From: Telmatocola sphagniphila
Lineage (GTDB): Bacteria > Planctomycetota > Planctomycetia > Gemmatales > Gemmataceae
Length of the DNA stretch: 32,000 nucleotides
Assembly (NCBI RefSeq): GCF_018398935.1
Contig: NZ_CP074694.1
Location: 5,280,001 to 5,312,000, forward strand
Reading direction: 5' to 3'
Shown here: piece after piece, positions 13,601-30,962 of the stretch
Position numbering within the stretch: the first letter of the stretch is position 1
How the letters are laid out: each line of letters starts with the position of its first letter
The notes under the pieces: model-generated
The model's database searches: none
What the model saw: only the letters and a program-made list of their open reading frames with translations
Told to the model about the DNA's origin: nothing
Program-made: the position numbers and the translations under genes

Positions 13601-15372
13601 ACAAGCTGAGTTATTTCAAGGAGCAAAAAAACGGCGAAAAAGTAGAATATCAGTTGAAATCTGATGGAAGTTTTCAAATTCTCCTCGACACGGTAAATTT
13701 AGACGAGAGAACAAAATCCTCGCAAATTTTAGATCACAAAACAATTACTGTAAATCGCCCGCACAGTTCGGACCTTCCTGAAGGGCAAAAAATTGAAACT
13801 TACAAGAGTCAATACGATGTTGATTACCATTATACAAAAGAAGGAAAACCTGATATTGGCCGGTTTACGAAAGAGACGACTTTAGATTGGACTGAATCTT
13901 CATCTACAGTAATGTCAAATATTTATTACGCTTCCTACATTGCTACATTAAATTCCCAAAGGGAATCAAATAGTCGAGGAAAAAATTATAGCTTCTACTC
14001 AGGTTGGGGTGACGAAGAAAACCCCACGATACTCAGTATTAAAGAAAAGTCGTTCTCAGTAATATATGCCAAAGGTCAAAGCACTAATTTGACCTTTGGC
14101 TCTAATATTACATTCTACAAATTCAACCAGTTCAGTTCAGTAAATATCGATCGAGAGGGTGTTCCTGCCCATGGTACAGGATCGCAAGTAGAAACCTCTG
14201 CAGAGTTAATAACTCAAACTATTTACGGGACGACAACGACTACTAGTAATAAGCCTCTGTGCACCACAACCACCGACTTATCTTGGCCACAAACAACTTG
14301 GTTCGAGCGGAACACGAATGCAATAGTAAATACAGCTAAAATCGCATTCGGACTGATTGAAGTTATCGGTGGTGCCTTGACCACCTTCGGCACCTGTGGC
14401 GGCGGAGTAGTTCCTGGCGTTTTCATGATGGCGAATGGACTGGATTCCATCATGACGGGCGTAGCCGGACTCTTGGACGGTCAATCGTATGGATCAGCTA
14501 TAGGCTACGCCGCTTCGCAGGGACTTCAAAAAATCGGCGTTCCAGAGAACGTTGCGGATGTGGCTGGAGAACTACTTCCGATCGCCATGAGTATGGGCTC
14601 CTCCGCACTCGCGCGGGCTTGCTTCGCAGCGGATACCAAATTATGGACGCCAACTGGCTATCGCCCAATTCAATCGATCAAAGCCGGAGAGTACGTCTAT
14701 TCCCGGAATGATGCCGATCCAAATGGTCCGATCGAACCGAAACTCGTCGAGGAGACTTTCAGCCGACTTGCGGTGATCTTCCACCTCCATGTGGAAAATC
14801 AGGTAATTCGCACTACAGGAGAACACCCCTTCTACGCCGAAGGCAAGGGGTGGGTCGATGCCCAGGAACTCCTCATTGGGGATAGAGTTCTCGGCTCGAA
14901 AGGAGAATGGCTGACAATTCGAGACTTGCTTGACACGGGCGAGTTCGAAACCGTATATAATATGCGAATTGCGGATCATCACACCTACTTCGTGGGTGAT
15001 GAATCCTGGGGCTGGGAGGTTTGGAGTCATAATAAGTGTCAACTACACCATTTCGTAATGGTAGCTTTAGGTAGTAAAGTTGAACGTGGTTCGTCCATTC
15101 TTACTTTGATCGGGTCTAGAACACACATAGCGATTCATCGAGCTCTGTCTAAACATCTGGAAACATACTCCAAGTATAGCCCTAAATTTGGAAAAACATT
15201 TACGATGAATCCTAAAAAGGGACAATCAGGGGACTTTATTCGATCAGTATTTTCACCATCAGAAAGAATTCAGGCATTGAAAGACTTTTATTCTACATAT
15301 AGAGGTGGGAGATACCTAAAGGAATTTATGATAGAGTTAGATACTACTCTTAAACGAGGCCTGTTCATATGA
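10657..15372 (+). CDS. large polymorphic toxin: N-terminal LEDR-like motif, G/S linker, N/S/T/Y-rich body, pre-toxin TG-like segment, Hint domain, LHH-type nuclease C-terminus
   Basis: Single 1571-aa ORF with no N-terminal hydrophobic signal peptide. It carries 'LKLEDRNQP' near the N-terminus, a Gly/Ser-rich tract (about aa 75-150), a Hint domain 'CFAADTKLW...TTGEHPF...VYNMRIADHHTYFVGD...WSHN' and a tail 'KCQLHHFV...THIAIHRAL'. The Hint-plus-variable-tail pattern repeats 4 times downstream. Confidence 0.9.
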   Translation: MPGKKSVTRKLTKWLSSSNSKKPLKAELIGTSFLKLEDRNQPGSVLNSFEMLPSFAFPSIFGDATANLSSFGGESNDLPGGGPSGSGGSGSEPLPGSGSNSESGAGSTGSDSGPGSSGSGSSTGGNGGSGSSGLPGYGGGSSGSNQQFTDAVYEQTVANALSQFGPLGDLFGENSQKMSPANLSTPQNISLEPPLPPAVNNNWSYSGQFQLSANDSSTGPTSSQLNSNLNPTPINVSQEISANNFKYSREIQFSGNRENESFLMSVIIDSTVSLGQVTTEAGTIVSTVWHKVGNQYLVNQQSALSSFNTIVPNDPNGNRSYVGFPAQGDITPNLDPRSYGLDQLQWDHIFRGDSVSYTYSGIYRGNYGDFSYYSNSSATSNWLDLTIDHPTGTNDQGLKSVVYTMYFGGSSSKDCIVSSQSSLLSQSASANRIPIRTGSAVTLPEQYTTNVSGTSFFERSYSWQNYGGHSYLTDSLDADNAIKNSTLDFRNQFSGGSGYQYYNSSICSIITNSIDITKVSRTDYSWLTNYASRNNYAGYVDYKLNYDSQNRPSGQVVQKMDSVDILDRDIYNCSVDYFSYDPLPNSGHYEYYSDNMKPIVYTNGNYQTTTYAKPVETASELASYVLNYGRIPDSDGRLFDTNTWYSTADTSYQTRTFDRRQNKFNQPGRTGKPYFGSSFESNVTRDDFYVEAKGVDDLWLKDGVSTREGNYLSQSINTYYGQGTPEQLPNDIDGSSAMYDWQQGESRGEFREKYLNSNGTSKLTSQYASDLHHSSGNGWNWGYTYGPKVPNVTNYYQYSSISDEIHTLDLNFAADGKKSGDYHDVVSGSLDEKYNETKIGNEPTYYEKVEANKVLSLNYPDANTTLNDSSLNEQYQFSLDDDEGHYTADKKNGNYQSKYKSNSRWDQRIERSSSVYANTLTNKYQGTINGSSTSDVDETGIVLNGIRTGAGELNATLKGTERYNQNKIERKVTPGENYSGDDKLSYFKEQKNGEKVEYQLKSDGSFQILLDTVNLDERTKSSQILDHKTITVNRPHSSDLPEGQKIETYKSQYDVDYHYTKEGKPDIGRFTKETTLDWTESSSTVMSNIYYASYIATLNSQRESNSRGKNYSFYSGWGDEENPTILSIKEKSFSVIYAKGQSTNLTFGSNITFYKFNQFSSVNIDREGVPAHGTGSQVETSAELITQTIYGTTTTTSNKPLCTTTTDLSWPQTTWFERNTNAIVNTAKIAFGLIEVIGGALTTFGTCGGGVVPGVFMMANGLDSIMTGVAGLLDGQSYGSAIGYAASQGLQKIGVPENVADVAGELLPIAMSMGSSALARACFAADTKLWTPTGYRPIQSIKAGEYVYSRNDADPNGPIEPKLVEETFSRLAVIFHLHVENQVIRTTGEHPFYAEGKGWVDAQELLIGDRVLGSKGEWLTIRDLLDTGEFETVYNMRIADHHTYFVGDESWGWEVWSHNKCQLHHFVMVALGSKVERGSSILTLIGSRTHIAIHRALSKHLETYSKYSPKFGKTFTMNPKKGQSGDFIRSVFSPSERIQALKDFYSTYRGGRYLKEFMIELDTTLKRGLFI
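10880..11100 (+). repeat. low-complexity Gly/Ser-rich coding tract inside the toxin gene
   Basis: Translates to 'GGGPSGSGGSGSEPLPGSGSNSESGAGSTGSDSGPGSSGSGSSTGGNGGSGSSGLPGYGGGSSGS'. Confidence 0.8.
14317..14619 (+). other. glycine-rich hydrophobic pre-toxin segment (PT-TG-like)
   Basis: 'AKIAFGLIEVIGGALTTFGTCGGGVVPGVFMMANGLDSIMTGVAGLLDG...' has glycine-zipper-like helices and TG dipeptides, immediately N-terminal to the Hint Cys1. This resembles the pre-toxin TG domain described for polymorphic toxins (from memory). Confidence 0.45.
14620..15033 (+). other. Hint (intein-like / PT-HINT) autoprocessing domain of the main toxin; master copy of the repeated handle
   Basis: Starts with Cys (tgc 14620). 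It has the block B 'TTGEHPF' (T-x-x-H), 'VYNMRIADHHTYFV' and a terminal 'SHN' (aat 15031-15033). It is about 138 aa with no endonuclease insert. Confidence 0.85.
15034..15372 (+). other. C-terminal toxin domain of the main gene, LHH-type HNH/EndoVII-fold nuclease (predicted)
   Basis: 'KCQLHHFVMVALGS..RTHIAIHRALSKHLE'. An LHH motif plus downstream His residues. Homologous to the orphan tail at 26263-26583 ('SCDLHHYLPMFMGS..DHTKFHRDINAFLE'). Confidence 0.5.
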
Positions 15373-15950
15373 AATATTATACATTTTACACAATAAAGGA
15401 TGCTAGTGTAAATACATCCATGTTCTATGAAATCGACAGCGGGACAGGTGTGTATTCTCCCTCTTCTGCCATTAGGCATCTCACTTGCAAAGAATGTAAT
15501 AAGTATGAAGAACGGAAAGCTTTCGATTTGTTAGCTACACGATCTTTTCAAATAACTCCAAAACATGACCATTTCGTGACTTTCGATGGTTGGAGAGTGG
15601 TTTCAAATAAATTCAAGGAAATTGTGGATAGGGTGGCCCCTAAATTAGTTTCTTGGTATCCCATTGGTGAAAAAAAACTCAATTTGTTTTTCGGATCAAT
15701 TCAATACCTTGCCAAATGTAAAGACGAGACATTACTCACTCGGTCAAATCTATGTAGCCTATGTGGTCGCTACGAAAATATATTAGAAGGTGATGCTCCT
15801 ATGGATTTCACCGATCATCCCGAGATTATCGGGCTACCATTTGAGAATAGATTTTGCTCTTCTCCAAGATGGTTAGTTTCTGAACGAATAAAAGAGTATC
15901 TTGAAGCTACGAATATTTCAAATATCGAATTTCATCAATATATGATGTAA
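15369..15950 (+). CDS. putative cognate immunity protein (family A; CXXC...CXXCG, Imm11/double-CXXCG-like)
   Basis: Its ATG overlaps the toxin stop (ATGA). It has 'CKEC' and 'CSLCG' motifs and a C-terminal 'RWLVSERIKEYLEATNISNIEF'. Paralogs lie at 25549-26151 and 26580-27187. Confidence 0.75.
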   Translation: MKYYTFYTIKDASVNTSMFYEIDSGTGVYSPSSAIRHLTCKECNKYEERKAFDLLATRSFQITPKHDHFVTFDGWRVVSNKFKEIVDRVAPKLVSWYPIGEKKLNLFFGSIQYLAKCKDETLLTRSNLCSLCGRYENILEGDAPMDFTDHPEIIGLPFENRFCSSPRWLVSERIKEYLEATNISNIEFHQYMM

Positions 15951-16096
15951 ACAATTTATGATAGATATCATGGAATATGATTAAAACTGGGTTGTTACGA
16001 AGTTGAATTTCGCACCTTGAGATAAAATCGCCATTCGATTTTGAGCAATATTGACGAGGTAACCGCAATACACTGGTTAGGTTTCCCAAAGAATTA

Positions 16097-16164
16097 GAGG
16101 CCCTAACAAAACCTCAATATGTCCATTGAAAACCGCTACAAAAAAGGGGTTTTGTTAGAGCTTC
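16097..16164. mobile_element. 68-bp MITE copy A (IS1031-like termini, TTA duplication)
   Basis: 'gaggccctaacaaaacc...ggggttttgttagagcttc' flanked by TTA (16094-96 and 16165-67). Same element as 20780-20846 and 30963-31029. Confidence 0.7.
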
Positions 16165-16180
16165 TTAGTCAGGATTTCAC

Positions 16181-16594
16181 ATGGATTTGGATTTTTTGAA
16201 ATTTCACGGTTCTGCGATGAAGATCGCAGAAGCTGAATTATCAGCTTCTTTTTTTGAGGATGAAAAGCAAGTCCTTGGAAAAAAAATGTATGAAGAATAT
16301 GTAGCATCCGGTGCTCCAAAAGATTTGAAAAAATGGCTACGAATCAAATTAAAAAGCGTATTCCAGTATGTGGATTCACCTCCAAAGTGGGTCGAAAATG
16401 GTTTAGACCCACTTTGGCCTTTCTTAGATGGCTTTCCTATGATCTTCATTAAACAATTTGAGCTACCAGACAACGAATTTTGTGCTCAGAGTCTATCTGC
16501 TGGTACGATTTTGTACGTTTTTGGTGCTCGTCGAAAAACATCACATGGTTTCGAGATGATTTACCGAGTAGTGGAGCAAGATACAGGTTTTTAA
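16181..16594 (+). CDS. hypothetical protein, candidate orphan immunity protein (family B)
   Basis: 137-aa ORF and paralog of 30533-30946. The C-terminal half is almost identical at nucleotide level and the N-terminal half is diverged. Confidence 0.65.
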   Translation: MDLDFLKFHGSAMKIAEAELSASFFEDEKQVLGKKMYEEYVASGAPKDLKKWLRIKLKSVFQYVDSPPKWVENGLDPLWPFLDGFPMIFIKQFELPDNEFCAQSLSAGTILYVFGARRKTSHGFEMIYRVVEQDTGF

Positions 16595-16709
16595 AGATGA
16601 ATTGGTTTTACGTATAAGACATACATTTCTCCTTAGTCTGCGGTATTTACGTCTGTTTTCATGTACTCAGCATACTATAGTATAGCTCGATCATTGGATG
16701 AATTCGAAA

Positions 16710-17313
16710 ATGCCATTTCACGTCCTAGTCGAGCGAATTGAAAACGATGCTGGACCGAATTTTTCCCGGTTGAGCCAAAATATGGTCCAGGTCCGAAGTG
16801 CCCGAAATGCGGACAATTTGTCGGCTCACTACCTTTGGTACCCCCTACCGCTTCAAGTTGGATGTTTGGGGTAATCAATACGGCGATCTCGCGTTCGGAG
16901 GTCCCAGCCTTCTGATTTCTGAACACTTTAAAGAAGTCTATCAACAAAACGGATTGACCGGCCTGAACGGCTTCGAGCCCGCTCTAATGTTGAAATGCCA
17001 AAGTCGATTGAGGCTCAAAGAAACACCTCCAAATTATCTCCATGTAGAGCTCCATCGAGGGTTCGCTGCGATTGATGAAGCGGGTTCAGAAGTTATTTGG
17101 GAAGATCCTATTGTCTGTCGATATTGTCTACTAGGATCCAAACTGAAACGTCGTCGACGCATCATTATTGATGAATCGACTTGGAGCGGTGAGGATATTT
17201 TTTATGCCCGTGGCCTCCCAGGTATAATCCTCGTTTCCAGCCGTTTCAAAGAAGTGTGCGAACAGCATCAGATCAAAAATGCGATTTTCGTTCCCTCGGA
17301 ACACCGGCGGTAG
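16710..17313 (+). pseudogene. double-CXXCG-type immunity protein gene (family C) broken by two -1 frameshifts
   Basis: Frame 0 gives 'MPFHVLVERIENDAGPNF'. Frame 2 gives 'FPVEPKYGPGPKCPKCGQFVGSLPLVPP'. Frame 1 (track ORF 16798-17313) gives 'YRFKLDVWGNQYGDLAFGGPSLLISEHF...VCRYC...GEDIFYARGLPGIILVSSRFKEVCEQHQIKNAIFVP'. The frame switches fall at a T5 run (16760-64) and a C5 run (16841-45). Confidence 0.7.
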
Positions 17314-17339
17314 CATAGCATTTTGGTTCCTCCGTTCTA

Positions 17340-17762
17340 GCACGAGCCTGCTTCGCAGCGGACACCAAATTATGGACGCCAACCGGCTATCGTCCGATTC
17401 AATCGATCAAGGCCGGGGAGTACGTCTATTCCCGGAATGATGCCGATCCTAATGGTCCCATCGAGCCGAAACTCGTCGAGGAGACTTTTAGCCGGCTCGC
17501 GGTGATCTTCCATCTCCAAGTAGAAAATCAAGTAATTCGCACTACGGGAGAACACCCCTTCTTCGCAGAAGGCAAGGGGTGGGTCGATGCCCAAGAACTC
17601 CTCATTGGAGATAGAGTTCTCGGCTCGAACGGTGAATGGCTGACTATTCGAGACTTGCTTGACACGGGCGAGTTCGAAACCGTATACAATATGCGAATTG
17701 CGGATCATCATACCTACTTCGTGGGCGATGATCGCTGGGGCTGGGAGGTCTGGAGCCATAAT
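17340..17762 (+). repeat. Hint handle copy 2 (full length)
   Basis: Nucleotide-level alignment by eye with 14611-15033. The differences are mostly synonymous. Confidence 0.9.
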
Positions 17763-18047
17763 AAGTGTATTGGTGAATACGCAGATCTTCGAAAAATCTG
17801 GGCTGGGGCCGGCAAACAGATTCATCATTTGTTAGAGCAACGCTTTGCAAAACTGCTCGGCATGGATCCTATGAAAATGTAATGTATCGCAATGCCAAAA
17901 GCAAAACATCAAGTATTCACCAACGCATGGAGAAGGCTTATTCCCTACGGCGAGGGGACCAAATCTGCGACTGTAGCGGAAGTTGAAAATGCTGCTCGAC
18001 AAGTGTACAAAAATTATCCTGGAATATTAAGAGCTCTTGGACTTTAA
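17340..18047 (+). pseudogene. orphan toxin cassette O1: complete Hint domain + xHH (AHH-like) HNH/EndoVII nuclease tail, no start codon, internal TAA
   Basis: The frame is open from 17319 with no ATG. 'ARACFAADTKLWTPTGYRPIQ...WSHN' matches the main gene from 9 nt before Cys1. The tail is 'KCIGEY..QIHHLLEQRFAKLLGMDPMKM*CIAMPKAKHQVFTNAWRRLIPYG...', with an in-frame TAA at 17880-82 and a final stop at 18045-47. Confidence 0.75.
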
Positions 18048-18061
18048 ATAAAATTGAAAAT

Positions 18062-18889
18062 ATGAAGATAATCCACAGAATCTCTCTTAGCGCAACTAAA
18101 TCTCAGAGAACAGCGTTGGATGAATTGGGTGTTAAATATCAGGATGTTATTTCCGATTCAATAGTATTTGAAACTGACGAATCGTCAGCAAATTGGAGTT
18201 CAATCAGCTCTCTGCTCGCACTATGGAAATCAGGGAATTCAAATGTTATAGATATGGTAAGTACAAAATTTACTGAGATGGAATTGCTGAAGGCGGAAAA
18301 TTTAGTAATCGTCCCTGGCTGGCATCATGGTTATCCTGAACCGGACATTGCCATGGCCTATCTGAAGAAGACATACGATGAAATTGAGTATTGTTCAATT
18401 TGTGGAATAGGACTAAAGCAGCGAGAGCAATTTATTTTGCAGAAAGAACCAAAGTGGGGGTCAAAACAAATTCTCCAATTGAATTGGATATTCGATGAGT
18501 ATTTTGTAACTCCAGAAGTATGGGAGTTAGTGTTTAAACCTTTTAGAATCTCTTCAATCCCAGTTAGCAAGTTAAAAACAGGTAATCCTCTGGCAACTGT
18601 CGTGCAACTTAAAGTTTCCGATGTTTGTGAGCCTCTAACACCGTTTAACAGATTGAATTCCGTTCGATGCGACAAATGTGGTCGTTCGAAATATGCGAGT
18701 CACACAAAGGGACCGTTTCCACATGTTGTAATGCCCAAAAATTCGCATATTGCTAAAACTGCGGAATACTTTGGTAATGGTGCAAATGCATATAAAGAAA
18801 TAATTGTGTCTAGATCGTTATATCACGCAATTGTTTTAAATCGTTTGAAAGGAGCTGATTTTAAACCTGTAGAATCCTCTTTAAGATGA
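18062..18889 (+). CDS. double-CXXCG motif protein, putative immunity protein for O1
   Basis: 275 aa with 'CSICG' and 'CDKCG' motifs and a C-terminal 'EIIVSRSLYHAIVLNRLKGADFKPV'. It starts 14 nt after the O1 stop. Confidence 0.7.
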   Translation: MKIIHRISLSATKSQRTALDELGVKYQDVISDSIVFETDESSANWSSISSLLALWKSGNSNVIDMVSTKFTEMELLKAENLVIVPGWHHGYPEPDIAMAYLKKTYDEIEYCSICGIGLKQREQFILQKEPKWGSKQILQLNWIFDEYFVTPEVWELVFKPFRISSIPVSKLKTGNPLATVVQLKVSDVCEPLTPFNRLNSVRCDKCGRSKYASHTKGPFPHVVMPKNSHIAKTAEYFGNGANAYKEIIVSRSLYHAIVLNRLKGADFKPVESSLR

Positions 18890-19386
18890 AAGTTGGGCTA
18901 GACATACTATTTAGAGCCTCTAATAAAACGCCCGAAATAGTGTGGCATTAAAGCGTCATGAGTTCCATCTGGATTCAGGACTGAAACCATGTACCATGCA
19001 GATCTACAGGATAAAATTTGGCAAGAAATCGAACCGTTGCTTCTTCCGAATGAACCTCCCCGTGATCAAAGAGGACGTTCTCAAATCCCGAATACGATGG
19101 TCATGTGCGGTATCTTTTTCGTTCTGATTTCCGGTTTGCTTTGGGAGGATATACCCCGTTAAATGGGATGCTCGTGCATGATTTGTTGACGCATGCTTCG
19201 AGATTGGCAGAAACTTTCCATTTGGGATCAACTGCATCGTTTGATATTAGTCAGCTTGTGTAAAGCAGAGGAATGCGACCTCTCCCTAATCGTGGTCGAT
19301 AGCACTACTTCTCGATACGCTGGTGGAGGTGATCTGACCGGGTTAAATCCCAAAGATCGACGTAAACCAGTCAATAAGCTATACTA

Positions 19387-20554
19387 GTGTAGTGTCTCAG
19401 AAATAGCGTTACTTTTAGCTCCTTTTTGCGGTTTACTCTATAGAAAAGGAGAAAACCCATGAAAGTCGCGCTGCCAATCTTACTTTCTGACGAGGAACGA
19501 CAAACTTTGACTTCTTGGTCTCGGGGACGAAGTACTCCCGCTCGGCTGGTCCTGCGGGCGAAGATCATACTCGCGGCGGCCGCGGGTGTACGGAACAAGG
19601 ACATTGCTCAGCAGTGCGGCACGTCGAAGCCCACGGTGGCGCGCTGGCGGACCCGATTTGCGAAGCTGCGTTTGGCGGGTATCGAACGGGACGCTTCGCG
19701 GCCGGGTCGAACGCCAGCGATCAGCCGGAAAGTCGTCGAAGAAATTCTCCGCAAGACCACTCAGGAGAAACCTTCTGGTGCCACGCATTGGAGCACGCGA
19801 ACGATGGCCCAAGAGGTGGGAGTGAGCAAAGCCACCGTGCAGCGGGTTTGGTCGGCCCACAACTTGAAGCCGCACTTGCATAAGACCTTCAAGGTATCGA
19901 ATGATCCTCAATTCGCCGAGAAACTGTGGGACGTAGTGGGCTTGTACTTGAACCCTCCCGAGCACGCCCTGGTGCTGAGTTGCGATGAGAAGAGTCAGAT
20001 TCAAGCCCTTGATCGTACGCAAAAAAGCTTGCCGATGGTACCCGGCCGTTGCGGCACTCTGACTCACGATTACATGCGTCATGGCACCACCACTCTGTTC
20101 GCGGCCCTGAACGTGGCCGAGGGAATTGTGATTGGCGAGTGCATGCCGCGACATCGACATCAGGAATGGATCAAGTTTCTCAAACGGATCGATGCCGCCA
20201 CCGATCCGTCCTTGGATTTGCACTTGATCGTGGACAACTACGCCACGCATAAGCATTCCAAAGTTCGTCGTTGGTTGGCCCGGCATTCTCGATTCCACAT
20301 GCATTTCACCCCCACGAGCAGTTCCTGGATGAATCTGGTGGAGCGTTGGTTTCGCGACTTGACGGACAAACGACTGCGTCGAGGCACATTTCGAAGCGTG
20401 CCGCAATTAATCCAGGCGATTGAGGACTACATCGATCATCACAACAACACAGGAAAGGGATTCCAGTGGACCGCCAAAGCCGAAGTTATTCTGGAGAAAG
20501 TCCGCCGGGCGAGGGCTACCTTGGATAAAACACATTCTGTGTGAGACACTACAC
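19387..20554 (+). mobile_element. IS630-family insertion sequence (intact), TA target duplication
   Basis: Terminal inverted repeats 'gtgtagtgtctca' (19387-99) and 'tgagacactacac' (20542-54), flanked by TA on both sides (19385-86 and 20555-56). One full transposase ORF. Confidence 0.9.
19459..20544 (+). CDS. IS630 family transposase
   Basis: 361 aa with N-terminal HTH/winged-helix regions ('[46 protein letters not shown]') and a DDE_3-type core ('[12 protein letters not shown]', '[12 protein letters not shown]', '[11 protein letters not shown]'). Confidence 0.95.
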
Positions 20555-20779
20555 TAGGGTGTGGATCGCAACGGTATTCCTCTCGAGGCTCATGTTAGGA
20601 GAACCAATCTACAGGATGTGAAAAAAATCATTCCTCTGGTGATCGACTTGCCGGCTCTTGAAGGAAAAGTCGGTGTATCCCATTAACAAACCCCAAGTGG
20701 TACTGGCAGATCAAACCTATCACGACAAATCAGGAGACGCCTTGCTTCGATATTTGGGAATCACGCCGCGTATGGCTAA

Positions 20780-20846
20780 GAAGGCCTAACAAAACCCGAG
20801 TTTGCCCATTGAAATCCGTCAAAAACCTAGGTTTTGTTAGGGCCTC
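20780..20846. mobile_element. 67-bp MITE copy B inserted in the IS1031-like transposase gene (TAA duplication)
   Basis: 'gaaggcctaacaaaaccc...ctaggttttgttagggcctc' flanked by TAA (20777-79 and 20847-49). Removing the element plus one TAA (70 bp) fuses '..GITPRMAKK' in frame to 'NTPNGSEMGKTRYVVERT..'. Confidence 0.75.
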
Positions 20847-21085
20847 TAAGAAGAATACTCCTAATGGCAGTGAAATGGGAAAAACTCGATACGTCGTGGA
20901 GAGGACCATCGCTTGGATACGCGGCATACACGGACTCCGAGTGCGATTTGATCGACACGACTGCATTTCTCAGACTTGGAATTCCTTTACCTTGGATTTT
21001 ATTTGCTTGTGAATTCTGATCGAATAATACGATTTTGATAAAGAGGTTTTTTGGGACTCTTTATTTTCTCTATTCTTCCATATAG

Positions 21086-21724
21086 ATGTTCTTTTCTCGT
21101 GTCGATGCGGATCCTATTACTTCTTTCGAGCCGAAATTCGTCGAGGAGACTTTTAGCCGGCTCGAAGTGATCTTCCATCTCTATGTGGAAAATCAGGTAA
21201 TTCGCACTACAGGAGAACACCCCTTCTACGCGGAAGGCAAGGGGTGGGTCGATGCTCAGGAACTCGTTATCGGGGACCGAGTTCTCGGTTCTAAAGGAGA
21301 ATGGCTGACAATTCGAGACTTGCTTGACACGGGCGAGTTTGAAACCGTATACAATATGCGAATTGCGGATCATCATACCTACTTCGTGGGCGATGATCGC
21401 TGGGGCTGGGATGTCTGGAGCCATAATAAATGCCACACGTACGCAATATTCAATAAAAAAACAGGTGATGTTTATAAAATAGGTGTAAGTCGTGGAGGAA
21501 TGTATAAATCAGGAAAGTCTATAAGAGCCCAGAATCAACTTGCGAAAATTGCTCGGAATAATAAAGTACCAAGAGAAGACTTGGAGTCAGTAATTCTCAG
21601 AGAATATCCTAATAGTACTACAATGTTCAAATGGGAAAATAGACTAGTAGGTTTTTATAGACAACTAGTTTATAGACTAGTCGAAAATATGCGTCCTAAT
21701 GGAATTATGTTTTATAATTGGTAA
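21086..21724 (+). CDS. orphan toxin cassette O2: 5'-truncated Hint (lacks Cys1) + GIY-YIG/URI-like nuclease tail (predicted)
   Basis: 212-aa ORF with its own ATG directly after an in-frame TAG. 'SRVDADPITSFEPKFVEETFSRLEVIFHLYVENQVIRTTGEHPFYAEG...WSHN' matches the main Hint from about codon 27. The tail is 'KCHTYAIFNKKTGDVYKIGVS..SIRAQNQ..KWENRLV' (Y-x10-YKIG spacing, then R, E, N). Confidence 0.7.
   Translation: MFFSRVDADPITSFEPKFVEETFSRLEVIFHLYVENQVIRTTGEHPFYAEGKGWVDAQELVIGDRVLGSKGEWLTIRDLLDTGEFETVYNMRIADHHTYFVGDDRWGWDVWSHNKCHTYAIFNKKTGDVYKIGVSRGGMYKSGKSIRAQNQLAKIARNNKVPREDLESVILREYPNSTTMFKWENRLVGFYRQLVYRLVENMRPNGIMFYNW
21097..21427 (+). repeat. Hint handle copy 3 (5'-truncated, ~330 nt)
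   Basis: Aligns by eye with about 14700-15033 of the main gene. Confidence 0.85.
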
Positions 21725-21760
21725 ATATGCATTTATTTTAATATTATCTTATAATTTATT

Positions 21761-22405
21761 ATGCCACTTACCCAAATCGAGATTTGCGCAGACGAGTCCC
21801 TGGTAGAATCGTATCCAGATGGATTCGTTATGCAATTCAGATGGCAATGCTGTTGCGTTGCGGGTCCATATTCGCGATTAATTGGCCGAAAAATAAGAAA
21901 TTTTCCTCACTGGAATTTGTTCATTCTTCTATTCGAGAACTCGAAAGAGGCTCTCGATCCAAATGATGGTTCGGTTGTTCTAAAGAGAAATTTTCCGTTT
22001 GCCGAATATCGCAGGGCAAATGACTATGGCAAAAAGTATCTTATCAGTCAACTTATACTGAGTATTGCCAAGGAACCTCCTTTTACAAAGGATGAGTATA
22101 TAATTTTCGAAAATATACACAAAAAACTGGTTTCTTTGAATTTTATATACACTCATCGAACAGCATACAAGTATATCGATAAGGATACATCTGTCAGACT
22201 GTACTGCCAGCTAGAATTGGACAAGTATACTCTAGGCGCTGAGATACGAAGAAAAGGTTATGGCGCGCTGGAACGTATTTTTATAAGTGATTTAATATCA
22301 ACAGGGGAATGGTGTTATCGATTTTCCCCAGTTTGGAAAGTTCTGGATAAAAACGTTAGGATTACTATTTCCTCAAGACAATCTTTTCAACTAGAGATCA
22401 ATTGA
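21761..22405 (+). CDS. hypothetical protein, putative immunity protein for O2
   Basis: 214-aa AT-rich ORF starting 36 nt after the O2 stop on the same strand. No recognised motif; the assignment is positional. Confidence 0.55.
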   Translation: MPLTQIEICADESLVESYPDGFVMQFRWQCCCVAGPYSRLIGRKIRNFPHWNLFILLFENSKEALDPNDGSVVLKRNFPFAEYRRANDYGKKYLISQLILSIAKEPPFTKDEYIIFENIHKKLVSLNFIYTHRTAYKYIDKDTSVRLYCQLELDKYTLGAEIRRKGYGALERIFISDLISTGEWCYRFSPVWKVLDKNVRITISSRQSFQLEIN

Positions 22406-22658
22406 AAGTTTAATAATACCGTAAGTGTAGTATTCGTATCGTAGCTGTCCAAACTGTAATATTGCACTTGCGCATTTTGGAGAATTTGTCATCTGAGTGG
22501 CATGATGATTCCCATCGACCAGCTCAGGAAAGATTTGCTCAGTGGAAAGATCGGCGGGGATCTCGAACGCGACGCTTCGACATGACTCCGACTCCTGAGG
22601 GTTAAAAACCATCAGGATAACTCATCTGACAAGGAGGAAGTTCACCAACCGGATACCG

Positions 22659-22793
22659 AAAGGTGAATGGCTGACAATTCTAGACTTGCTTGACAAAGGC
22701 GAGTTCGAAACGGTATATAATATGCGGATCGCGGATCATCACACCTACTTTGTAGGGGATGAATCCTGGGGCTGGGAGGTCTGGAGCCATAAT
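22659..22793 (+). repeat. Hint handle copy 4 (~135 nt)
   Basis: Aligns with 14899-15033 of the main gene, with a few mostly synonymous changes. Confidence 0.85.
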
Positions 22794-23153
22794 TCCATAT
22801 GCAGCGTTTTAGAAACTGAAGAAGCAGGATTGGCTTTTAGCACCAAAGCACTTAGGGTGAGTGAAATTCACCACATTGCATCAGAAAAATCTGCAAAGAT
22901 TGTAGCAGCCTTCACGGAGATTCTTAGAAAAGCAGAGCTAAGTCTTCAGTCTGCATTCAATAAAAATCGAGTAGCCTGGCATGTTAGTCCACACGGCGTG
23001 TTCTACAATCAGTACATTTTTAAACGATTGACCGACGCTGTCGGTGGCACAACGGGCTCAACTTATCGAGCCAAATTATTAGACGAGCTCTGGCAACTAA
23101 GAAGAGAGATACAGAATGGCGATCTTGGATTTTTGTTGAGGGATAGGGCATAG
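22686..23153 (+). CDS. orphan toxin cassette O3: last ~45 aa of Hint + AHH-type HNH/EndoVII nuclease tail (predicted)
   Basis: Homology to the main gene starts at 22659 ('KGEWLTILDLLDKGEFETVYNMRIADHHTYFVGDESWGWEVWSHN'). The frame is open from 22599 with no ATG; the track ORF uses the TTG at 22686. The tail is 'SICSVLE...EIHHIASEKSAKIVAAFTEILRKAELSLQSAFNKNRVAWHVSPHGVFYNQYI'. Confidence 0.7.
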   Translation: MLDKGEFETVYNMRIADHHTYFVGDESWGWEVWSHNSICSVLETEEAGLAFSTKALRVSEIHHIASEKSAKIVAAFTEILRKAELSLQSAFNKNRVAWHVSPHGVFYNQYIFKRLTDAVGGTTGSTYRAKLLDELWQLRREIQNGDLGFLLRDRA

Positions 23154-23216
23154 ATCATATCTATATTTACGATTTACCTCGAACGGAATAACAATGAAAT
23201 ATTACGAGATGAATAT

Positions 23217-24639
23217 GGCTCTTCCGTTTTTAGGCGCAACTCTCGGCGAATCGGTCATTTTGGGATAGATTGCAATTGAGAGTACCCTTTTCCTGGTTCA
23301 CGGAAGAGCCGATGACGACGACTACCATTGCCATAGACATGGACGTCCCTGCCGGAGTGAGCGTTGGCGAATACGAACGCATCGACGGGGGCCACGCCTT
23401 TCACGTGAGTTGGGAGTTGCCCGACAATCTTTGTTGCGAGACATGCCAGCGAGAGTCTCGGCTTCAATTGGTGGAGAAGAACAAGTTTCTGAGCATCCGC
23501 GATCTGGATTTGTGGGGTAAGCCGAGCTTTTTCGTGTACCAGGAGGTGTATCACCGCTGCCCGTCGTGCGGTCACCGTCAATCGCTGTTGCCGCCGTTCA
23601 AGCGTCGGGATGTGAAATATACGTTTCGCTTCGAGGAGCAGGTGCTGGTCAGTCTGATCGGGAGCACAGCCGAAGACGTGGCGGTGCGTTTGGGGATCGC
23701 CGCGGAGACGGTGGAACGAATCGTCAAGAACCGGATAGAGGACGCCAAGGCGAAGCAGATCGATCCCCAGCGGAAGATCGAGCGTTTGGGTCTGGATGAG
23801 ATCAGCCTGCGTAAGGGGCATAAGGGATATGCGACCATTCTCACAGACCTGACGAATGGGGAGCGTCCGGAGATTCTGGCTCTGTCCAAGGGTCGCGACG
23901 AAGCAGCGGGGCGAGCGTGTTTGGAGCATTTGTCGGCCCAGCAACGGTCGGCGGTGCGTTGGCATCATACGGACATGAGCCGCGGCGTATTTGAAGGCTT
24001 GCGGCGTGCATTTACCCAACAGCCAGTCGGTAATAGATCGCTTTCACGTCGCCAAGAAATTGGGTGAGGTGGCGGACGATCTGCGAAAAAACTATCGAGC
24101 CTACAAGCGAAGTTTGAGCGGGGAAGCCCGCAAGAAGCTGCGTTCTCAGATGCACGACTTCCGGCGTCGTCCCGAGGATTTGAAACCGGAGCAGGTCCAG
24201 GCCCTCGAGGATTTGTTCGAGAAGGTGCCTTCGTTGGGAACGATCTACCATCTGCGTTGGGAGGCGACCAAAATCTTCGATAGTGCCCCGAACCGAGCCG
24301 AAGCCTCGCGACTGTTGGAAGATTGGATCGTCCAGGCCCGCGAGACCGAGATGGATTGGGAGCCGTTCATCACGATGCTCAAGAATAACTGGGAGGGGAT
24401 CTTAGCCTACTTCGAGGAACGCAAAAGCAGCGGCCCGGTGGAGGGTCTGAATACCAAGATTCGGGTAGTGCTACGCCGAAGTTATGGAATTCAGAGTCTA
24501 ACTACGCTCTGGACGAGAATACTCCTGGACGTGAATTGGGCAGCGAAAAAATTAGGGCCGACCATTGCGGAGATTCGCGGCTTCGTCAACCAGATACAGA
24601 AGCATTTCTCTGGATGCTACACCTAGAAACGGAAGAGCC
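23217..24639 (+). mobile_element. ISL3-family insertion sequence with 8-bp target duplication
   Basis: Inverted repeats 'ggctcttccgttttTagg' (23217-) and 'cctaGaaacggaagagcc' (-24639). There is a perfect 8-bp direct repeat ATGAATAT at 23209-16 and 24640-47. Confidence 0.9.
23312..24626 (+). pseudogene. ISL3 family transposase, split by a +1 frameshift near 23985-23995
   Basis: The N-terminal part has zinc-finger Cys pairs ('CCETC', 'CPSCG') and '..LGLDEISLRKGHKGYATILTDL..HTDMSRG'. The second frame continues 'YLKACGVHLPNSQSVIDRFHVAKKL...GPVEGLNTKIRVVLRRSYG'. The two track ORFs (23270-24067 and 23991-24626) overlap. Confidence 0.85.
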
Positions 24640-25176
24640 ATGAATATAGATTCTGAATCCGTCACAGCTATGCCATCGATTCAAGATTGCTTTTCTGATG
24701 GAAGTGCTGTGGATATTTGGGCTTTTATACGCTGTGAAAAATATACTGGAAAAACGCCGATACCTTTTAAATCTGAAGATTCAAGGATCATCGATGATTT
24801 TAACTATACGGCATTTGGCGCCATAATTGTATCTGAGCGTATGGCTGTCTGCTTGCGAGATATATCGCCGAACGATTTTGAATTAATTCCATGTCTCATC
24901 AACAATAATTACACTTCGCTTATTGTTAACGTTCTAGCGAATCCTGATTGCATCGATACTGCTGCAAGTATAATTCAATATTATCCTCCCGACGATCCGG
25001 AAAAACCCAACAAACCGAGAGGCGTTATAAAATTGGTGATTGATTCAGCCCAGGCAAGTCCGCATCACATTTTACGTCCAAAATATTGGCAAGTCGAAAT
25101 TGTGATTTCTCAAATTTTTAAAGATGCTTTTGAGCAGGGGAAATTCACTGGCATGCGGTTTAGCCCGGCCTATTGA
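24640..25176 (+). CDS. Imm11/DUF1629-like putative immunity protein for O3, 5' end displaced by the ISL3 insertion
   Basis: The original start 'ATGAAATATTACGAG ATGAATAT' is at 23194-23216. After the IS the reading frame resumes at the duplicated ATGAATAT (24640): 'MNIDSESVTAMPSIQ...'. The C-terminus is 'YWQVEIVISQIFKDAFEQGKFTGMRFSPAY'. The track ORF 24565-25176 starts inside the IS. Confidence 0.7.
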   Translation: MNIDSESVTAMPSIQDCFSDGSAVDIWAFIRCEKYTGKTPIPFKSEDSRIIDDFNYTAFGAIIVSERMAVCLRDISPNDFELIPCLINNNYTSLIVNVLANPDCIDTAASIIQYYPPDDPEKPNKPRGVIKLVIDSAQASPHHILRPKYWQVEIVISQIFKDAFEQGKFTGMRFSPAY

Positions 25177-25204
25177 TTACTATTTCCCATTTTAGGAGAT
25201 TAAG

Positions 25205-25381
25205 GCTAATGCACCACTAAGTCGTTGTGGCAACGCGCGGGAGAATTTCGCATGGTTGAATCGCTTCACGCTCTCACTGCTGAAACAACACCCGGGCTAA
25301 GGAAGTCTGGTCATGAAGGGCCGATCCTGTGGTTGGAATTCCAAGTTCTTGCTCGAAATACTTACAGCTGTAAGAAGTTAG
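25205..25381 (+). pseudogene. ISAs1-family transposase C-terminal relic
   Basis: Translates to 'ANAPLSRCGNARENFAWLNRFTLSLLKQHPG*GSLVMKGRSCGWNSKFLLEILTAVRS*'. This matches the conserved ISAs1 C-terminus pattern (GNAxxNFAxLRRxALxLLKQ...KGSxxxKRxxAxWDxxFLxxxL) with one in-frame stop. No upstream catalytic part is present. Confidence 0.6.
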
Positions 25382-25548
25382 TTGCCGCTGGCCCTGGGGT
25401 CGTGCCTCGGGAATCCAGGGCTCCAAAAAGAGCCCACTGACCATCCGTTAAATCTGTTGAATAGGGTTTCCGCTCTATGTGTAATTATATTCACGTACAC
25501 GCTTTTGGATTAGAATCCGAGTTCTATGTTGAGAAGAGGTTTATTCAA

Positions 25549-26151
25549 GTGAACTTTTTCGCTATATTTACTAAAAAGGATGTTACACCATCGACTTCGC
25601 TGTTTTATAAATTAGATAAAATAACAGACAAATATTCGCCTATTTTAGAAATTAATCATTTGACATGCTCATTATGTATTAAATACGATGAAAATAAGGC
25701 TATCGAGTTGCTAAGTGCTAGAAAGTTGAGCGTATTGCCAAAAATGGATCATTTTGTTACTTTCGATGGATGGAGACTATTTTCGGAGAAATTTAGAAAT
25801 ATTGTAGAGTCTGTGGCACCGCGACTCGTAACTTGGTATCCTATAAGCACAAAAAGATCTGCTATATATTATGGGTCAATCCACTTTCTCGCAAAATGTT
25901 CTGAAGGGAATACATTGGAGTGTTCTAATAAATGCGATCTGTGTGGTCGATACGAGAGTGTTCTTGAGGGAAATGTACCGTTGAAATTAGAAAATATCCC
26001 AGATATTGTTGGTTTGCCATTTGAAGACAGATTTTGCTCTTCTCCCAGATGGTTAGTTTCCGATCGAATAAAAGCGAAGCTTGAGGCAGCAGGTATTACA
26101 AATATAGATTTCCATCGCTATTATAGAGACTCGAGGGTATATAGTATGTAA
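25549..26151 (+). CDS. family A immunity protein paralog (CXXC...CXXCG), cognate toxin lost
   Basis: Aligns along its length with 15369-15950 ('HLTCSLC..', 'HFVTFDGWRLFSEKFRNIVESVAPRLVTWYPI', 'CDLCGRYE', 'FCSSPRWLVSDRIKAKLEAAGITNIDFH'). The GTG at 25549 aligns with the paralog start. The track ORF extends to the ATG at 25477. Confidence 0.75.
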   Translation: MNFFAIFTKKDVTPSTSLFYKLDKITDKYSPILEINHLTCSLCIKYDENKAIELLSARKLSVLPKMDHFVTFDGWRLFSEKFRNIVESVAPRLVTWYPISTKRSAIYYGSIHFLAKCSEGNTLECSNKCDLCGRYESVLEGNVPLKLENIPDIVGLPFEDRFCSSPRWLVSDRIKAKLEAAGITNIDFHRYYRDSRVYSM

Positions 26152-26200
26152 ATTGCATCTTCAGAATGTGCAGGTAGATACTTATATCTATCAAGGGCAA

Positions 26201-26262
26201 CGGATCATCACACCTACTTCGTGGGTGATGAATCCTGGGGCTGGGAGGTTTGGAGTCATAAC
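26201..26262 (+). repeat. Hint handle copy 5 (~60 nt)
   Basis: Perfect match by eye to 14971-15030 of the main toxin gene. Confidence 0.85.
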
Positions 26263-26583
26263 AGTTGTGACTTACATCATTATCTACCGATGTTTATGGG
26301 AAGTATGGTACGGCGCGGCACTTTGTTCGCTCGCTCAATCCTAAAACCATTCATAAAGACAGATCATACCAAATTTCATAGGGACATAAATGCATTCTTA
26401 GAAACACTAGATATGACAGTTAAAAGAGGCAGAACGTCACAAGACATTATCACTACGTTTGCGAAAAGGAGCGACTCAAAGCATTTGTTGTGGTTATATA
26501 TATATTATGAACAGGAAATTGATGCTAAGGTATTTCTTAATAAACTTTGTGCGACTATTAGAGCGGGATACTTTCCTAGATGA
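26221..26583 (+). CDS. orphan toxin cassette O4: last ~20 aa of Hint + LHH-type nuclease tail (predicted)
   Basis: 26201-26259 is identical by eye to the main gene ('DHHTYFVGDESWGWEVWSHN'). The tail then reads 'SCDLHHYLPMFMGSMVRRG...DHTKFHRDINAFLE'. There is no ATG; the track ORF uses the GTG at 26221. Confidence 0.7.
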   Translation: MGDESWGWEVWSHNSCDLHHYLPMFMGSMVRRGTLFARSILKPFIKTDHTKFHRDINAFLETLDMTVKRGRTSQDIITTFAKRSDSKHLLWLYIYYEQEIDAKVFLNKLCATIRAGYFPR

Positions 26584-27187
26584 TCACAAATATGTTTCTT
26601 GTTACTCCTCGAGATACAGTTAATTCGTTCTTTCTGTTTAGATTTATTAATAATAAATCTGGGGCGATGCTACAAATTCGTGAGGAATATACCGATTTAG
26701 TTTGCCATAAATGCGGTAAATTGAATGAAATTTCAGCTTTAGATAGAAATATTGTTTTCATGTCAAAAATTAAGAGCAAAAAATCATTCGTTTTATCTGC
26801 AGATGATTTTTATCTGACTAATCAAAACGGAGTTTTGTCTTTGAATAAATCTTTTGGGAATCTTCTTGTTTTTCGGGAACAGATTACTTTGCAGTGACAC
26901 CGAAATGCATAGTCCAGCCGAAATTGCACGATGAAGGATTTAAATTTGTGTATGGAACTCAGGGAAACTGCACAGAATGCAGACGGCCGAAAGAAGTGGT
27001 ATGGTCCAAAACTCCGCCAACTATTTCAAAAATGCCGGTCTTATTCGCAGTAAACTTAGAGAGCCAGCTGGGCGCAAGAGTTGTATGGATAGTACAAAAT
27101 GAGGTTCAGGATGAACTTAGATCATTGAAGTCAATACACCCTGGTATAGTTTACAGACCAATTAAATTTGATTGTAACTTAGTTTAG
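26580..27187 (+). pseudogene. family A-like immunity gene for O4, split into two ORFs by a frame change at ~26894
   Basis: Its ATG overlaps the O4 stop (ATGA). ORF1 (26580-26897) carries 'CHKCG'. ORF2 (26894-27187, GTG overlapping the TGA) carries 'CTEC' and ends 'ARVVWIVQNEVQDELRSLKSIHPGIVYRPI'. Together they mirror the single-ORF paralogs. Confidence 0.6.
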
Positions 27188-27686: not shown

Positions 27687-28133
27687 ATGAGTATTTATAG
27701 TATTCTCGAACCTGAAGTAGCCGGAGTGATCGGTGAGTCTAGCTTCATCGATGGTAGTACGATTCCGCAGGTCGTACGCAGTCTAGAATATAAATTTGAG
27801 ACCTGGTTCGAGAATGATCTATTGCAAGCATACCCTTGCTTCCTTGTAACCGACAGGCTGAAAAAGGCACTCGAAAAATATCATGGAACGGGGTACAGTT
27901 TTGACGAAGTCTTTGCAACTCAATCCGTTCAATTTGAACTGATCAATCCCGGTATAACATTGGGGTTATTCTGGTGCTTTAAAATCTCCGGCCATGCAGG
28001 GGAAGCGGATTTTGGCTTGTCAGAAGATGGTACTTTAGTTGTGTCAGCCAATGCTCTTGAGATTCTTCGGAAATTTAATCTTAGCCGTTGCACAATTAGA
28101 ACGAGGCCGTTTCAACCAAAAAAAGCAATCTGA
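27687..28133 (+). CDS. hypothetical protein, candidate orphan immunity protein
   Basis: 148-aa ORF containing 'CFLVTDRLKKALEKYHGTGYSFDEV', the same LV(S/T)..hK..hE....G..F motif as the other immunity candidates. No adjacent toxin. Confidence 0.5.
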   Translation: MSIYSILEPEVAGVIGESSFIDGSTIPQVVRSLEYKFETWFENDLLQAYPCFLVTDRLKKALEKYHGTGYSFDEVFATQSVQFELINPGITLGLFWCFKISGHAGEADFGLSEDGTLVVSANALEILRKFNLSRCTIRTRPFQPKKAI

Positions 28134-28235
28134 TTCTCAGGAAATCGTTTACCACAAATTAAAAAAATATTCGGTAACCCTTCAGTCCCCTGAACTGCAG
28201 ACGCGCAGTTAGCAGGATTTTGCCATGACGGTGTC

Positions 28236-29030: not shown

Positions 29031-29100
29031 GGCTATTCTGGAGAAAGTTCGTCGGGCTAAGGCTACCTTGGATAAAAGATCTTCTGTGTGTGACCTGCAC
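29018..29100 (+). mobile_element. IS630 right-end fragment
   Basis: 'ccaaagccgaggctattctggagaaagttcgtcgggctaaggctaccttggataaaag..ctgtgtgtgacctgcac' parallels 20473-20554 of the intact copy, followed by TA. Confidence 0.7.
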
Positions 29101-30458: not shown

Positions 30459-30532
30459 ATTTCGCGTTTTGGGCGATCGTTGAACTGTTTGAGTACTCCA
30501 AATCTAAATGGCTCGGAATTACTGGATGCGGT

Positions 30533-30946: not shown

Positions 30947-30962
30947 AGATGAATTTGTCTTA

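Follow-up and report, generated by a model that had tools for sequence, protein, structure and literature searches.

How might a bacterium exchange the toxin carried by one of its genes, and how would each new toxin be supplied with the means of its own release? These questions are raised by a 32,000-nucleotide (nt) stretch of DNA from the peat-bog planctomycete Telmatocola sphagniphila (contig NZ_CP074694.1, positions 5,280,001 to 5,312,000 of the forward strand), referred to here as the window, whose numbering is used throughout. From its gene content the window can be seen to hold a polymorphic toxin island, with an anatomy that is standard for a toxin locus and its orphan cassettes. A segment coding for a Hint domain is found in one long gene and is repeated, with differing 5' extents, in four orphan modules downstream (O1 to O4). 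This segment is termed the handle, and the coding sequence that follows each copy, the tail. It is probable that the locus comprises a polymorphic toxin main gene and four orphan modules whose Hint-coding handle is both the substrate for recombination and the module that releases the toxin.

The main protein is 100% identical to hypothetical protein KIH39_21200 of T. sphagniphila (Planctomycetota, Gemmataceae), and its gene lies in an AT-richer island that extends from about 10 kb to 31.74 kb of the window. Five different tails are found at one junction, and the small genes downstream belong to the Imm11 family or to no family, as is characteristic of polymorphic toxins (Zhang et al., 2012; PMC3482391). 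The main gene, the handles and the tails are listed below (GC values are fractions).

10657..15372, + strand: main polymorphic-toxin gene, 1571 amino acids (aa), KIH39_21200; its sole Pfam match is PT-HINT
14620..15033, + strand: complete Hint domain (handle of the main gene), 138 codons from Cys1 to His-Asn; PF07591, PDB 2LWY
15034..15372, + strand: main toxin tail, 112 aa, begins KCQLHH; GC 0.37; invariant HH...G...H...H; no Pfam hit
17325..17762, + strand: O1 handle, 146 codons (8 pre-Hint codons and the full Hint), DDRWGWEVW subtype; 91% nt identity to the main gene
17763..18047, + strand: O1 toxin tail, 93-codon frame with TAA at 17880-17882; N-terminal part like the O3 AHH tail (BLASTP past the junction)
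21092..21427, + strand: O2 handle, the final 112 codons of Hint, starting at residue 27; subtype DDRWGWDVW; 87.5% nt identity
21428..21724, + strand: O2 toxin tail, Tox-URI2 nuclease family (PF15653, E 3e-7); GC 0.33
22656..22793, + strand: O3 handle, last 46 Hint codons, from residue 93, DESWGWEVW subtype; 90.6% nt identity
22794..23153, + strand: O3 toxin tail, AHH (HNH/EndoVII) nuclease family (PF14412, E 6e-7)
26203..26262, + strand: O4 handle, last 20 Hint codons, from residue 119, DESWGWEVW subtype; 59 of 60 nt as in the main gene
26263..26583, + strand: O4 toxin tail, begins SCDLHH; distant paralogue of the main tail

Five handles and a common junction

Copies of the handle were located with the motif TGGAG[TC]CATAA[TC], which codes for W-S-H-N, and each was compared with the main gene in an ungapped register running back from the junction. 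The motif occurs five times, its Asn codon ending at 15033 in the main gene, 17762 in O1, 21427 in O2, 22793 in O3 and 26262 in O4. All five copies stop at His-Asn, as a preliminary description of the window had proposed. Where does homology begin? In O1 it begins 24 nt (8 codons, GSS(A/V)LARA) 5' of Cys1, right after the stop codon of the gene at 16798-17313. The earlier placement, 9 nt before Cys1, was wrong; those given for the other orphans (codon 27 in O2, the last ~45 codons in O3 and ~20 in O4) agree with the measured values of 27, 46 and 20. None of the four orphans has an N-terminal region. They are downstream fragments with variable 5' homology (146, 112, 46 and 20 codons) and a fixed His-Asn end, which are among the features that define orphan modules (Poole et al., 2011; PMC3150448), and all four handles are open and free of insertions and deletions.

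Nucleotide identity is at background 5' of each homology start and directly 3' of the Asn codon, with two exceptions. The next two codons, Lys-Cys, are common to the main gene, O1 and O2, and the main and O4 tails are distantly homologous (38% at the amino acid level over an alignment that includes the handle). Two subtypes distinguished earlier at the 3' end of the handle are present, DESWGWEVW in the main gene, O3 and O4, and DDRWGW(E/D)VW in O1 and O2.

Identity of the handle and residues at the junction

What is the repeated segment? Residues 1331-1459 of the main protein match PT-HINT (PF07591) with 77.1 bits against a cutoff of 27.7 (E 2e-21), over profile positions 4-136 of 137. Among solved structures the nearest in sequence is 2LWY, a C. 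thermocellum domain that was deposited as bacterial intein-like, abbreviated BIL (E 9e-21), whereas true inteins reach only about E 0.01. By these comparisons the segment is a bona fide PT-HINT, or A-type BIL, domain and a typical member of the family. The catalytic residues that had been read from the sequence could be placed in the main protein: Cys1 is C1322 (nt 14620), the TTGEHPF block is aa 1386-1392 with T1387-x-x-H1390, and the terminal pair is H1458-N1459. The Hint domain stands directly N-terminal to the toxin domain, with the tail beginning at residue 1460, and in O2 and O3 what follows is Tox-URI2 and AHH, respectively.

With the Hint segment as query, a profile-free exhaustive search gave 19,034 cluster representatives at E <= 1e-3, and almost all of the alignments stop at query positions 147-149, i.e. 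at His-Asn plus at most two residues. Junction statistics were taken from an alignment of 194 related Hint domains, in which every one of the 155 that extend to the position of Cys1 has that residue, and 186 of the 194 have His-Asn.

All five tails have a Cys within three residues of the junction (KC in the main gene, O1 and O2, SIC in O3, SC in O4), a feature that the preliminary description had pointed out. Could it be a splice nucleophile? At +1 the aligned domains have Ala (90), Thr (24) or Ser (15), and Cys is not among the tallied residues; none of the 39 junctions listed individually has Cys at +1. In this locus the +1 residue is Lys in the main gene, O1 and O2 and Ser in O3 and O4. The relatives have Tyr (62) or Cys (53) at +2 and Cys at +3 in 29 cases, and 81 of 186 carry Cys at +2 or +3, far above the background frequency of Cys. 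Judged by these counts, the junction-proximal Cys is a real feature of the family. Its interchangeability with Tyr argues against the role of canonical +1 splice nucleophile, and that role was rejected, as the residue is found at +2 or +3 and never at +1. Nor does the domain resemble a canonical intein, with a +1 nucleophile and insertion in a conserved host protein; it lies between a non-conserved scaffold and a toxin tail.

Two further observations concern the relatives. The pattern after His-Asn (Ala at +1, Tyr or Cys at +2 and Cys also at +3, in P0002-P0196) has the form of a conserved extension of the domain boundary. Three proteins (P0051, P0056 and P0083) have two to five separate Hint matches each; these may be true tandem Hint domains or may result from reading through orphan arrays.

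Divergence of the handles and exchange between them

The handles were compared by Nei-Gojobori counts over the shared codons of each pair. The ratio of non-synonymous to synonymous divergence (dN/dS) is 0.05 for the main gene and O1 (dS 0.42; 32 synonymous and 7 non-synonymous differences), 0.13 for the main gene and O2 (dS 0.48; 26 and 16), 0.055 for the main gene and O3 (dS 0.50; 10 and 3) and 0.17 for O1 and O2 (dS 0.38). The synonymous excess gives Fisher p values from 1.6e-16 to 3e-6. Divergence that is this deep and this strongly synonymous indicates that the handles separated while within translated, functional Hint domains; on this evidence they are not recent in-place duplicates and have not been homogenised by gene conversion. 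Differences between copies had earlier been described as largely synonymous and put down to selection or gene conversion. Of these, selection stands, the ratios of 0.05-0.17 being far from neutral, and gene conversion does not, except perhaps in one pair.

That pair is the main gene and O4. Their handles, earlier called identical by eye, are nearly so, with one synonymous change in 20 codons, and their tails are only distantly related. One difference compares with about 4-5 expected at the dS of the other copies (p ~0.06, a rough Poisson estimate). The likeness suggests a recent conversion or a recent common source, and this is the only pair that looks recently homogenised. In O2, changes in the first 16 codons are mostly non-synonymous, so that its 5' edge looks relaxed.

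Have the handles recombined? Over the 112 codons shared by the main gene, O1 and O2, the informative sites fall into three uninterrupted blocks of 6, 10 and 8. In the outer blocks O1 equals O2 and the main gene differs, and in the middle block the main gene equals O2 and O1 differs. Only 1 of 100,000 permutations gave an arrangement as good as these three runs (p ~1e-5). The mosaic places recombination breakpoints within the Hint-coding handle, near 250/246 nt and between 118 and 76 nt 5' of the junction. The informative sites indicate that the handles have exchanged segments.

The toxin tails

A step in GC is seen at every junction: handles have 0.49-0.53, tails 0.33-0.43 and immunity genes 0.35-0.40. 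The main and O4 tails form one family with invariant HH, G, H and H positions and without a Pfam model; the main tail is also homologous to the tails of three other Hint proteins (P0045, P0073 and P0009), and its AF2 model had no match in the PDB. Three of the four orphan tails are intact. The exception is O1, probably a toxin pseudogene by virtue of its in-frame TAA; the frame is otherwise open and ends just before the next gene, and the full-length Hint ahead of it is intact.

Orphan arrays in other genomes

Similar arrangements are found elsewhere. In word-index searches the Hint segment matched 47 short (84-255 aa) metagenomic open reading frames (ORFs), each consisting of a Hint piece and a toxin domain of one of many families, and many of them begin inside Hint. 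Zavarzinella formosa, another member of the Gemmataceae, has three Hint copies within 10 kb. This was the one locus returned by a Hint-protein scan of the genome collection; it is heavily masked with runs of N, and the T. sphagniphila genome was not among the returns. A scan of metagenome DNA for a degenerate 31-nt core of the handle gave no matches, and a metagenome protein scan gave two short loci at 35% identity.

Metagenome contigs with RHS genes offer a closer view. In contig L002 an RHS gene disrupted by an insertion sequence (IS) is followed by an 82-codon Hint orphan and then by a full-Hint orphan. Contig L006 carries an RHS-repeat gene and an ORF in which PT-HINT is complete, and then six orphans, with handles of approximately 96, 80, 22, 28, 33 and 46 codons that all end at WAHN; the tail of its full-Hint ORF belongs to the same family as the main tail of T. 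sphagniphila. The RHS ORF (3-3593) and the full-Hint ORF (3644-4897) of L006 lie in different frames, 50 nt apart, over positions 3-4897, and are a single gene that carries a frameshift or an assembly error, or else an RHS gene with a long-handled first orphan. Contig L008 is the same haplotype as L006.

Contig L007, from another sample, is collinear with L006 from orphan 1 onward (99.1% over 8.7 kb), and its upstream context differs. In its first handle about 48 consecutive informative sites are of the L006 full-Hint type, and the following 36 of 36 are of the orphan-1 type. There is a single switch, about 33 codons before the junction, and the tail and immunity gene of the full-Hint copy are absent. 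From its structure, L007 is the product expected of a handle-by-handle crossover.

The arrays also bear on the order of the handles. That handles become shorter the farther they lie from the main gene does not hold as a rule; L006 contradicts it, as does L002, where the short handle precedes the full one, and a monotonic order of four arises by chance in 1/24 of cases.

Proposed mechanism

How would such a locus work? After export, the Hint domain would cut its own C-terminus by cyclisation of Asn and free whichever tail is fused after His-Asn. Cleavage or rearrangement at the N-terminal junction may also take place, through a thioester at Cys1. Since the Hint segment is the only sequence common to the main gene and the orphans, it is the likely substrate for homologous recombination, and the 3' limit common to all handles falls at the scissile His-Asn. 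By analogy with CdiA and Rhs, crossing over of the main handle with that of an orphan would rebuild a complete Hint with the orphan toxin fused to it. Recombination between orphan and main genes has been shown for Rhs (Koskiniemi et al., 2014; PMC3967940) and for CdiA (Poole et al., 2011; PMC3150448).

Unless preceded by a tandem duplication, such a crossover would delete the modules in between, and because intervening toxin and immunity modules are lost it would not be a neutral swap. The earlier suggestion that a single crossover anywhere in the handle would swap the expressed toxin is therefore to be modified. The mosaic and the L006/L007 chimera favour it, but the O1 tail carries a TAA and intervening modules would be lost. 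By the same route, and on the same analogy, incoming cassettes would displace the resident tail downstream. Displacement of this kind would explain the differing 5' extents of the orphans and their diverged handles, shaped by purifying selection.

Immunity genes and insertion sequences

The other genes of the island are of two kinds, immunity-type genes and IS elements.

15369..15950, + strand: cognate immunity gene of the main toxin, Imm11 (PF07791, E 2e-7); its start overlaps the toxin stop
16181..17313, + strand: two toxin-less immunity-type genes (137 aa; 171 aa, Imm11), with a second copy at 30533-31735
18062..18889, + strand: candidate O1 immunity gene by position, 275 aa; no Pfam or NCBIfam match
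19459..20544, + strand: IS630-family transposase with DDE_3 and HTH domains, between the O1 and O2 modules
21761..22405, + strand: candidate O2 immunity gene by position, 214 aa; no Pfam or NCBIfam family match
23270..24626, + strand: transposase of the ISL3 family, spanning two overlapping ORFs; situated after the O3 toxin and before the next Imm11 gene
24565..25176, + strand: Imm11 gene, probably the O3 partner (PF07791, E 2.5e-16); its listed 5' end overlaps the IS
25477..26151, + strand: toxin-less paralogue of the main immunity gene (54% aa), just upstream of O4
26580..27187, + strand: two overlapping ORFs in different frames after the O4 tail, with weak collinear alignment to the halves of the main immunity protein (E 0.04 and 7e-4)
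27687..31735, + strand: island tail with immunity-type genes and an IS66 fragment; the island ends near 31740
27687-28133, + strand: immunity-type gene in the island tail, 148 aa
28236-28979, + strand: IS66 fragment
29503-29964, + strand: immunity-type gene in the island tail, SUKH
29961-30458, + strand: immunity-type gene in the island tail
30533-30946 and 31220-31735, + strand: immunity-type gene pair in the island tail

The ORFs at 26580-27187 are probably a split (frameshifted) O4 immunity gene. The paralogue at 25477-26151, together with an O4 tail paralogous to the main toxin, points to two related toxin/immunity lineages within the one island.

The two copies of the immunity pair are 14.4 kb apart and share 300 nt that are 100% identical (16608-16907 and 31030-31329). 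The first lies directly next to the O1 handle, and with the second the island ends on its right side, beyond which GC rises to 0.59. Three IS families are present, IS630, ISL3 and IS66 (the last as a fragment), and a 75-nt copy of the IS630 3' end, 87% identical, lies at 29020-29094.

Alternative explanations

Several points weigh against the handle as recombination substrate and release module. No trafficking domain or signal is recognisable at the N-terminus of the main protein. Autocleavage, export and actual swapping in T. sphagniphila are argued from analogy. A crossover with O1 would install a toxin interrupted by the in-frame TAA, the O3 toxin is parted from its probable Imm11 partner by the ISL3 element, and the O4 immunity gene is probably split. 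The mosaic is neither polarised nor dated and may predate the arrival of these sequences in this genome. The longest tracts of perfect identity between the main handle and those of O1, O2, O3 and O4 are 41, 49, 23 and 59 nt; tracts of 41-59 nt are near or above the minimal efficient length for RecA-dependent recombination, and 23 nt is marginal. The 9-13% divergence of the handles leaves only such short perfect tracts (23 nt in O3) and would limit recombination of the RecA type. Lastly, L006 and L007 are metagenome assemblies from different samples and might contain a mis-join; this is unlikely, as their longest shared identical tract is about 60 nt, less than the 141 in the 'k141_' contig names, a number presumed to be the assembly k-mer size.

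Is the array then a graveyard? The orphans could be displaced C-terminal remnants kept as a hoard of immunity genes, with selection on those genes, handles as incidental scars and no switching. We consider this possible but rather unlikely. The O1 nonsense codon, the IS630, ISL3 and IS66 insertions and the O4 immunity gene that is probably split indicate that part of the array is decaying, and the mostly non-synonymous changes at the 5' edge of O2 are in keeping with this. At least seven immunity-type genes have no adjacent toxin (at 16181-17313, 25477-26151, 27687-28133, 29503-30458 and 30533-31735), and the same possibility was raised for contact-dependent growth inhibition by Poole et al. 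(PMC3150448). However, four handles have stayed open without indels and three of four tails are intact, the mosaic and the L006/L007 crossover show recombination in handles, and activation of Rhs orphans by recombination has been shown experimentally (PMC3967940). The explanation is also compatible with a handle that recombines and releases, differing only on whether switching continues. The array is part usable reserve and part debris, so at least part of it is not a usable repertoire, and keeping the immunity genes is probably another function under selection.

A different question is whether the orphans are translated on their own, as small Hint-toxin proteins that form intracellular toxin/antitoxin-like pairs or are separately exported. 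The O2 ORF (21086-21724) has an ATG, two codons 5' of the homology, and O3 and O4 have TTG or GTG starts inside the handle. The O1 and O2 frames are annotated as proteins by NCBI (KIH39_21220 and KIH39_21240), and for mafB-CT cassettes with a BIL, Jamet et al. considered that translation could start at TTG (PMC4287609). Against this, O1 has no ATG, GTG or TTG 5' of Cys1 or anywhere before Hint residue 61 (the first listed start is GTG at 17502), and the products would be without Cys1, the N-terminal Hint blocks and the trafficking region. The start points are arbitrary, as expected of first-available start codons in fragments, and promoter and terminator scans gave no excess over shuffled expectation. 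Independent translation is accordingly improbable.

Exchange at the protein level, in which C-terminal Hint pieces of the orphans complement an N-terminal Hint as a split intein and toxins are loaded and released without DNA recombination, is the least probable of all: the closest structure, 2LWY, was deposited as a bacterial intein-like domain and reportedly supports trans-splicing when split artificially, and the O3 ORF begins 36 residues before the junction, close to natural lengths of C-terminal intein fragments (IntC), but the window has no partner consisting of an N-terminal fragment (IntN) only, the Hint of the main gene is complete, handle lengths from 14 to 146 codons show no preferred split site, and DNA mosaics and crossovers fully explain the pattern. 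In a milder variant, the +2/+3 Cys and Cys1 might pair up as a redox latch and hold back cleavage until the toxin is in a reducing cytoplasm.

The N-terminal region and the rest of the window

If the handle recombines and releases as proposed, what delivers the toxin? The N-terminal part of the main protein (aa 1-1321) matches no Pfam or NCBIfam family, aa 1-1312 have no homologue in a collection of 5.8 billion proteins, and word-index searches with the whole main protein or with aa 160-1312 return the main protein alone. An exact look-up of the main protein in the contig collection gave no record. A signal-peptide-like N-terminus was not found by eye. Within aa 1-1312 (10657-14592) there is a Gly/Ser-rich low-complexity stretch at about aa 70-150 and a long Ser/Thr/Asn/Tyr-rich part. 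The sole N-terminal stretch that resembles other Hint proteins, two in number, is the approximately 150 residues before Hint:

14155..14619, + strand: pre-Hint Gly-rich hydrophobic region, aa 1167-1321; BLASTP matches to N-terminal parts of P0163 and P0098; no Pfam family

The region of about 1300 aa as a whole may be an uncharacterised delivery scaffold.

The leftmost 9.4 kb of the window is ordinary chromosome (55% GC) with an ABC-2/HlyD/TetR operon and a GHKL ATPase. The latter, a 616-aa GHKL/HSP90-like protein (7569-9419, - strand) directly left of the island, has a weak N-terminal match to PADLOC TmtA models and is flanked by two family-less genes (6386-7537 and 9519-9917, both - strand). 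The three genes could represent a defence-related module.

A hairpin repeat (CCTAACAAAACC, then about 33 nt, then GGTTTTGTTAG[G/A]) has three copies, at 16090-16164, 20773-20847 and 30956-31030. All are intergenic and within the island, and shuffled sequence yields none. The repeat could be an element like a miniature inverted-repeat transposable element (MITE) or a signal for transcription or recombination. A sixth Hint copy at the right edge of the window was also considered and rejected; the duplicated immunity pair stops at 31735 and is followed by unrelated high-GC sequence.

Relation to known systems

How new is this arrangement? The cdiA-CT/cdiI and rhs-CT/rhsI systems likewise have arrays of modules downstream of the main gene, with variable upstream homology and divergence past a fixed motif, and their orphans frequently have no start codon and carry IS interruptions. 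'Varying amounts' of upstream homology, a fixed demarcation point, disruption by IS and loading mediated by deletion have all been described there, and deletions that fuse orphan and main genes were found between strains and in evolved cultures (PMC3150448; PMC3967940). The shared segment in those systems is the VENN region or the end of the Rhs core (PxxxxDPxGL), whereas in this locus an entire Hint autoprotease domain is shared; those systems deliver their toxins by type V or type VI secretion systems (T5SS, T6SS), whereas the T. sphagniphila protein has no recognisable trafficking domain.

Another close system is MafB of Neisseria (PMC4287609; Arenas et al., 2020; PMC7738311), where a Hint/BIL domain stands between a conserved N-terminal part and a variable toxin, and downstream cassettes consist of a 5'-truncated BIL, a toxin and an immunity gene. 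In class-1 mafB-CT cassettes the opening A-type BIL is without its first seven residues, and the BIL-coding region was drawn as a segment with a potential part in variation (PMC4287609). In Neisseria a BIL is often missing from the main gene, and homology for recombination has therefore been questioned (PMC4287609; PMC7738311). The differences lie in the scaffold, which is DUF1020 with a signal peptide in Neisseria and an unrecognisable region of about 1300 aa here, in the single truncation point there as against truncations of 0 to 118 Hint codons here, and in the phylum, here Planctomycetota. The tpsA/tpsC loci of Neisseria (PMC7738311) likewise have cassettes, shortened at the N-terminus, that carry alternative toxic domains and immunity genes and recombine with the expressed locus, but on a T5SS TpsA scaffold and with a conserved region that is not Hint.

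From other members of the PT-HINT family and the A-type BIL domains (C. thermocellum BIL4, 2LWY) the locus differs in nothing essential; matches are strong, Cys1, TxxH and the terminal His-Asn are present, the toxin follows directly, and AHH and URI2 toxins and Imm11 and SUKH immunity genes are typical partners. HINT was predicted to release the toxin, and the cassettes to recombine, by Zhang et al. (2011, PMC3113570; 2012, PMC3482391), who infer cleavage from architecture, without an analysis of handle truncation or mosaicism. Autocleavage of a BIL has been cited for CdiA of P. syringae (PMC4725963). The proposal in the preliminary description that the recombination handle coincides with the release module is thus supported in substance but is not new, being present in the MafB/BIL literature (PMC4287609) and in the Rhs and CdiA analogues (PMC3113570; PMC3150448). 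The arrangement is of a well-known type and not a new kind of system.

Significance

The locus leaves the current understanding of how such systems work unchanged. What the window adds is a planctomycete example, a wide range of truncation within one domain and a quantified mosaic, to which L006 and L007 add a natural crossover inside a Hint handle. Breakpoints inside the Hint segment can be placed at nucleotide resolution both here and in an unrelated RHS-Hint array, which makes concrete a principle already suggested by Rhs, CdiA and MafB. For mining new toxin tails, one can rely on the His-Asn junction as an anchor; of the five tail families in this island, two are without a Pfam model. Interbacterial toxins have hardly been studied by experiment in the Planctomycetota, and this is a well-resolved polymorphic toxin locus from that phylum. 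If the shared recombination segment is indeed the self-cleaving module, every recombinant would receive a complete releasing peptidase placed at the first residue of its new toxin.

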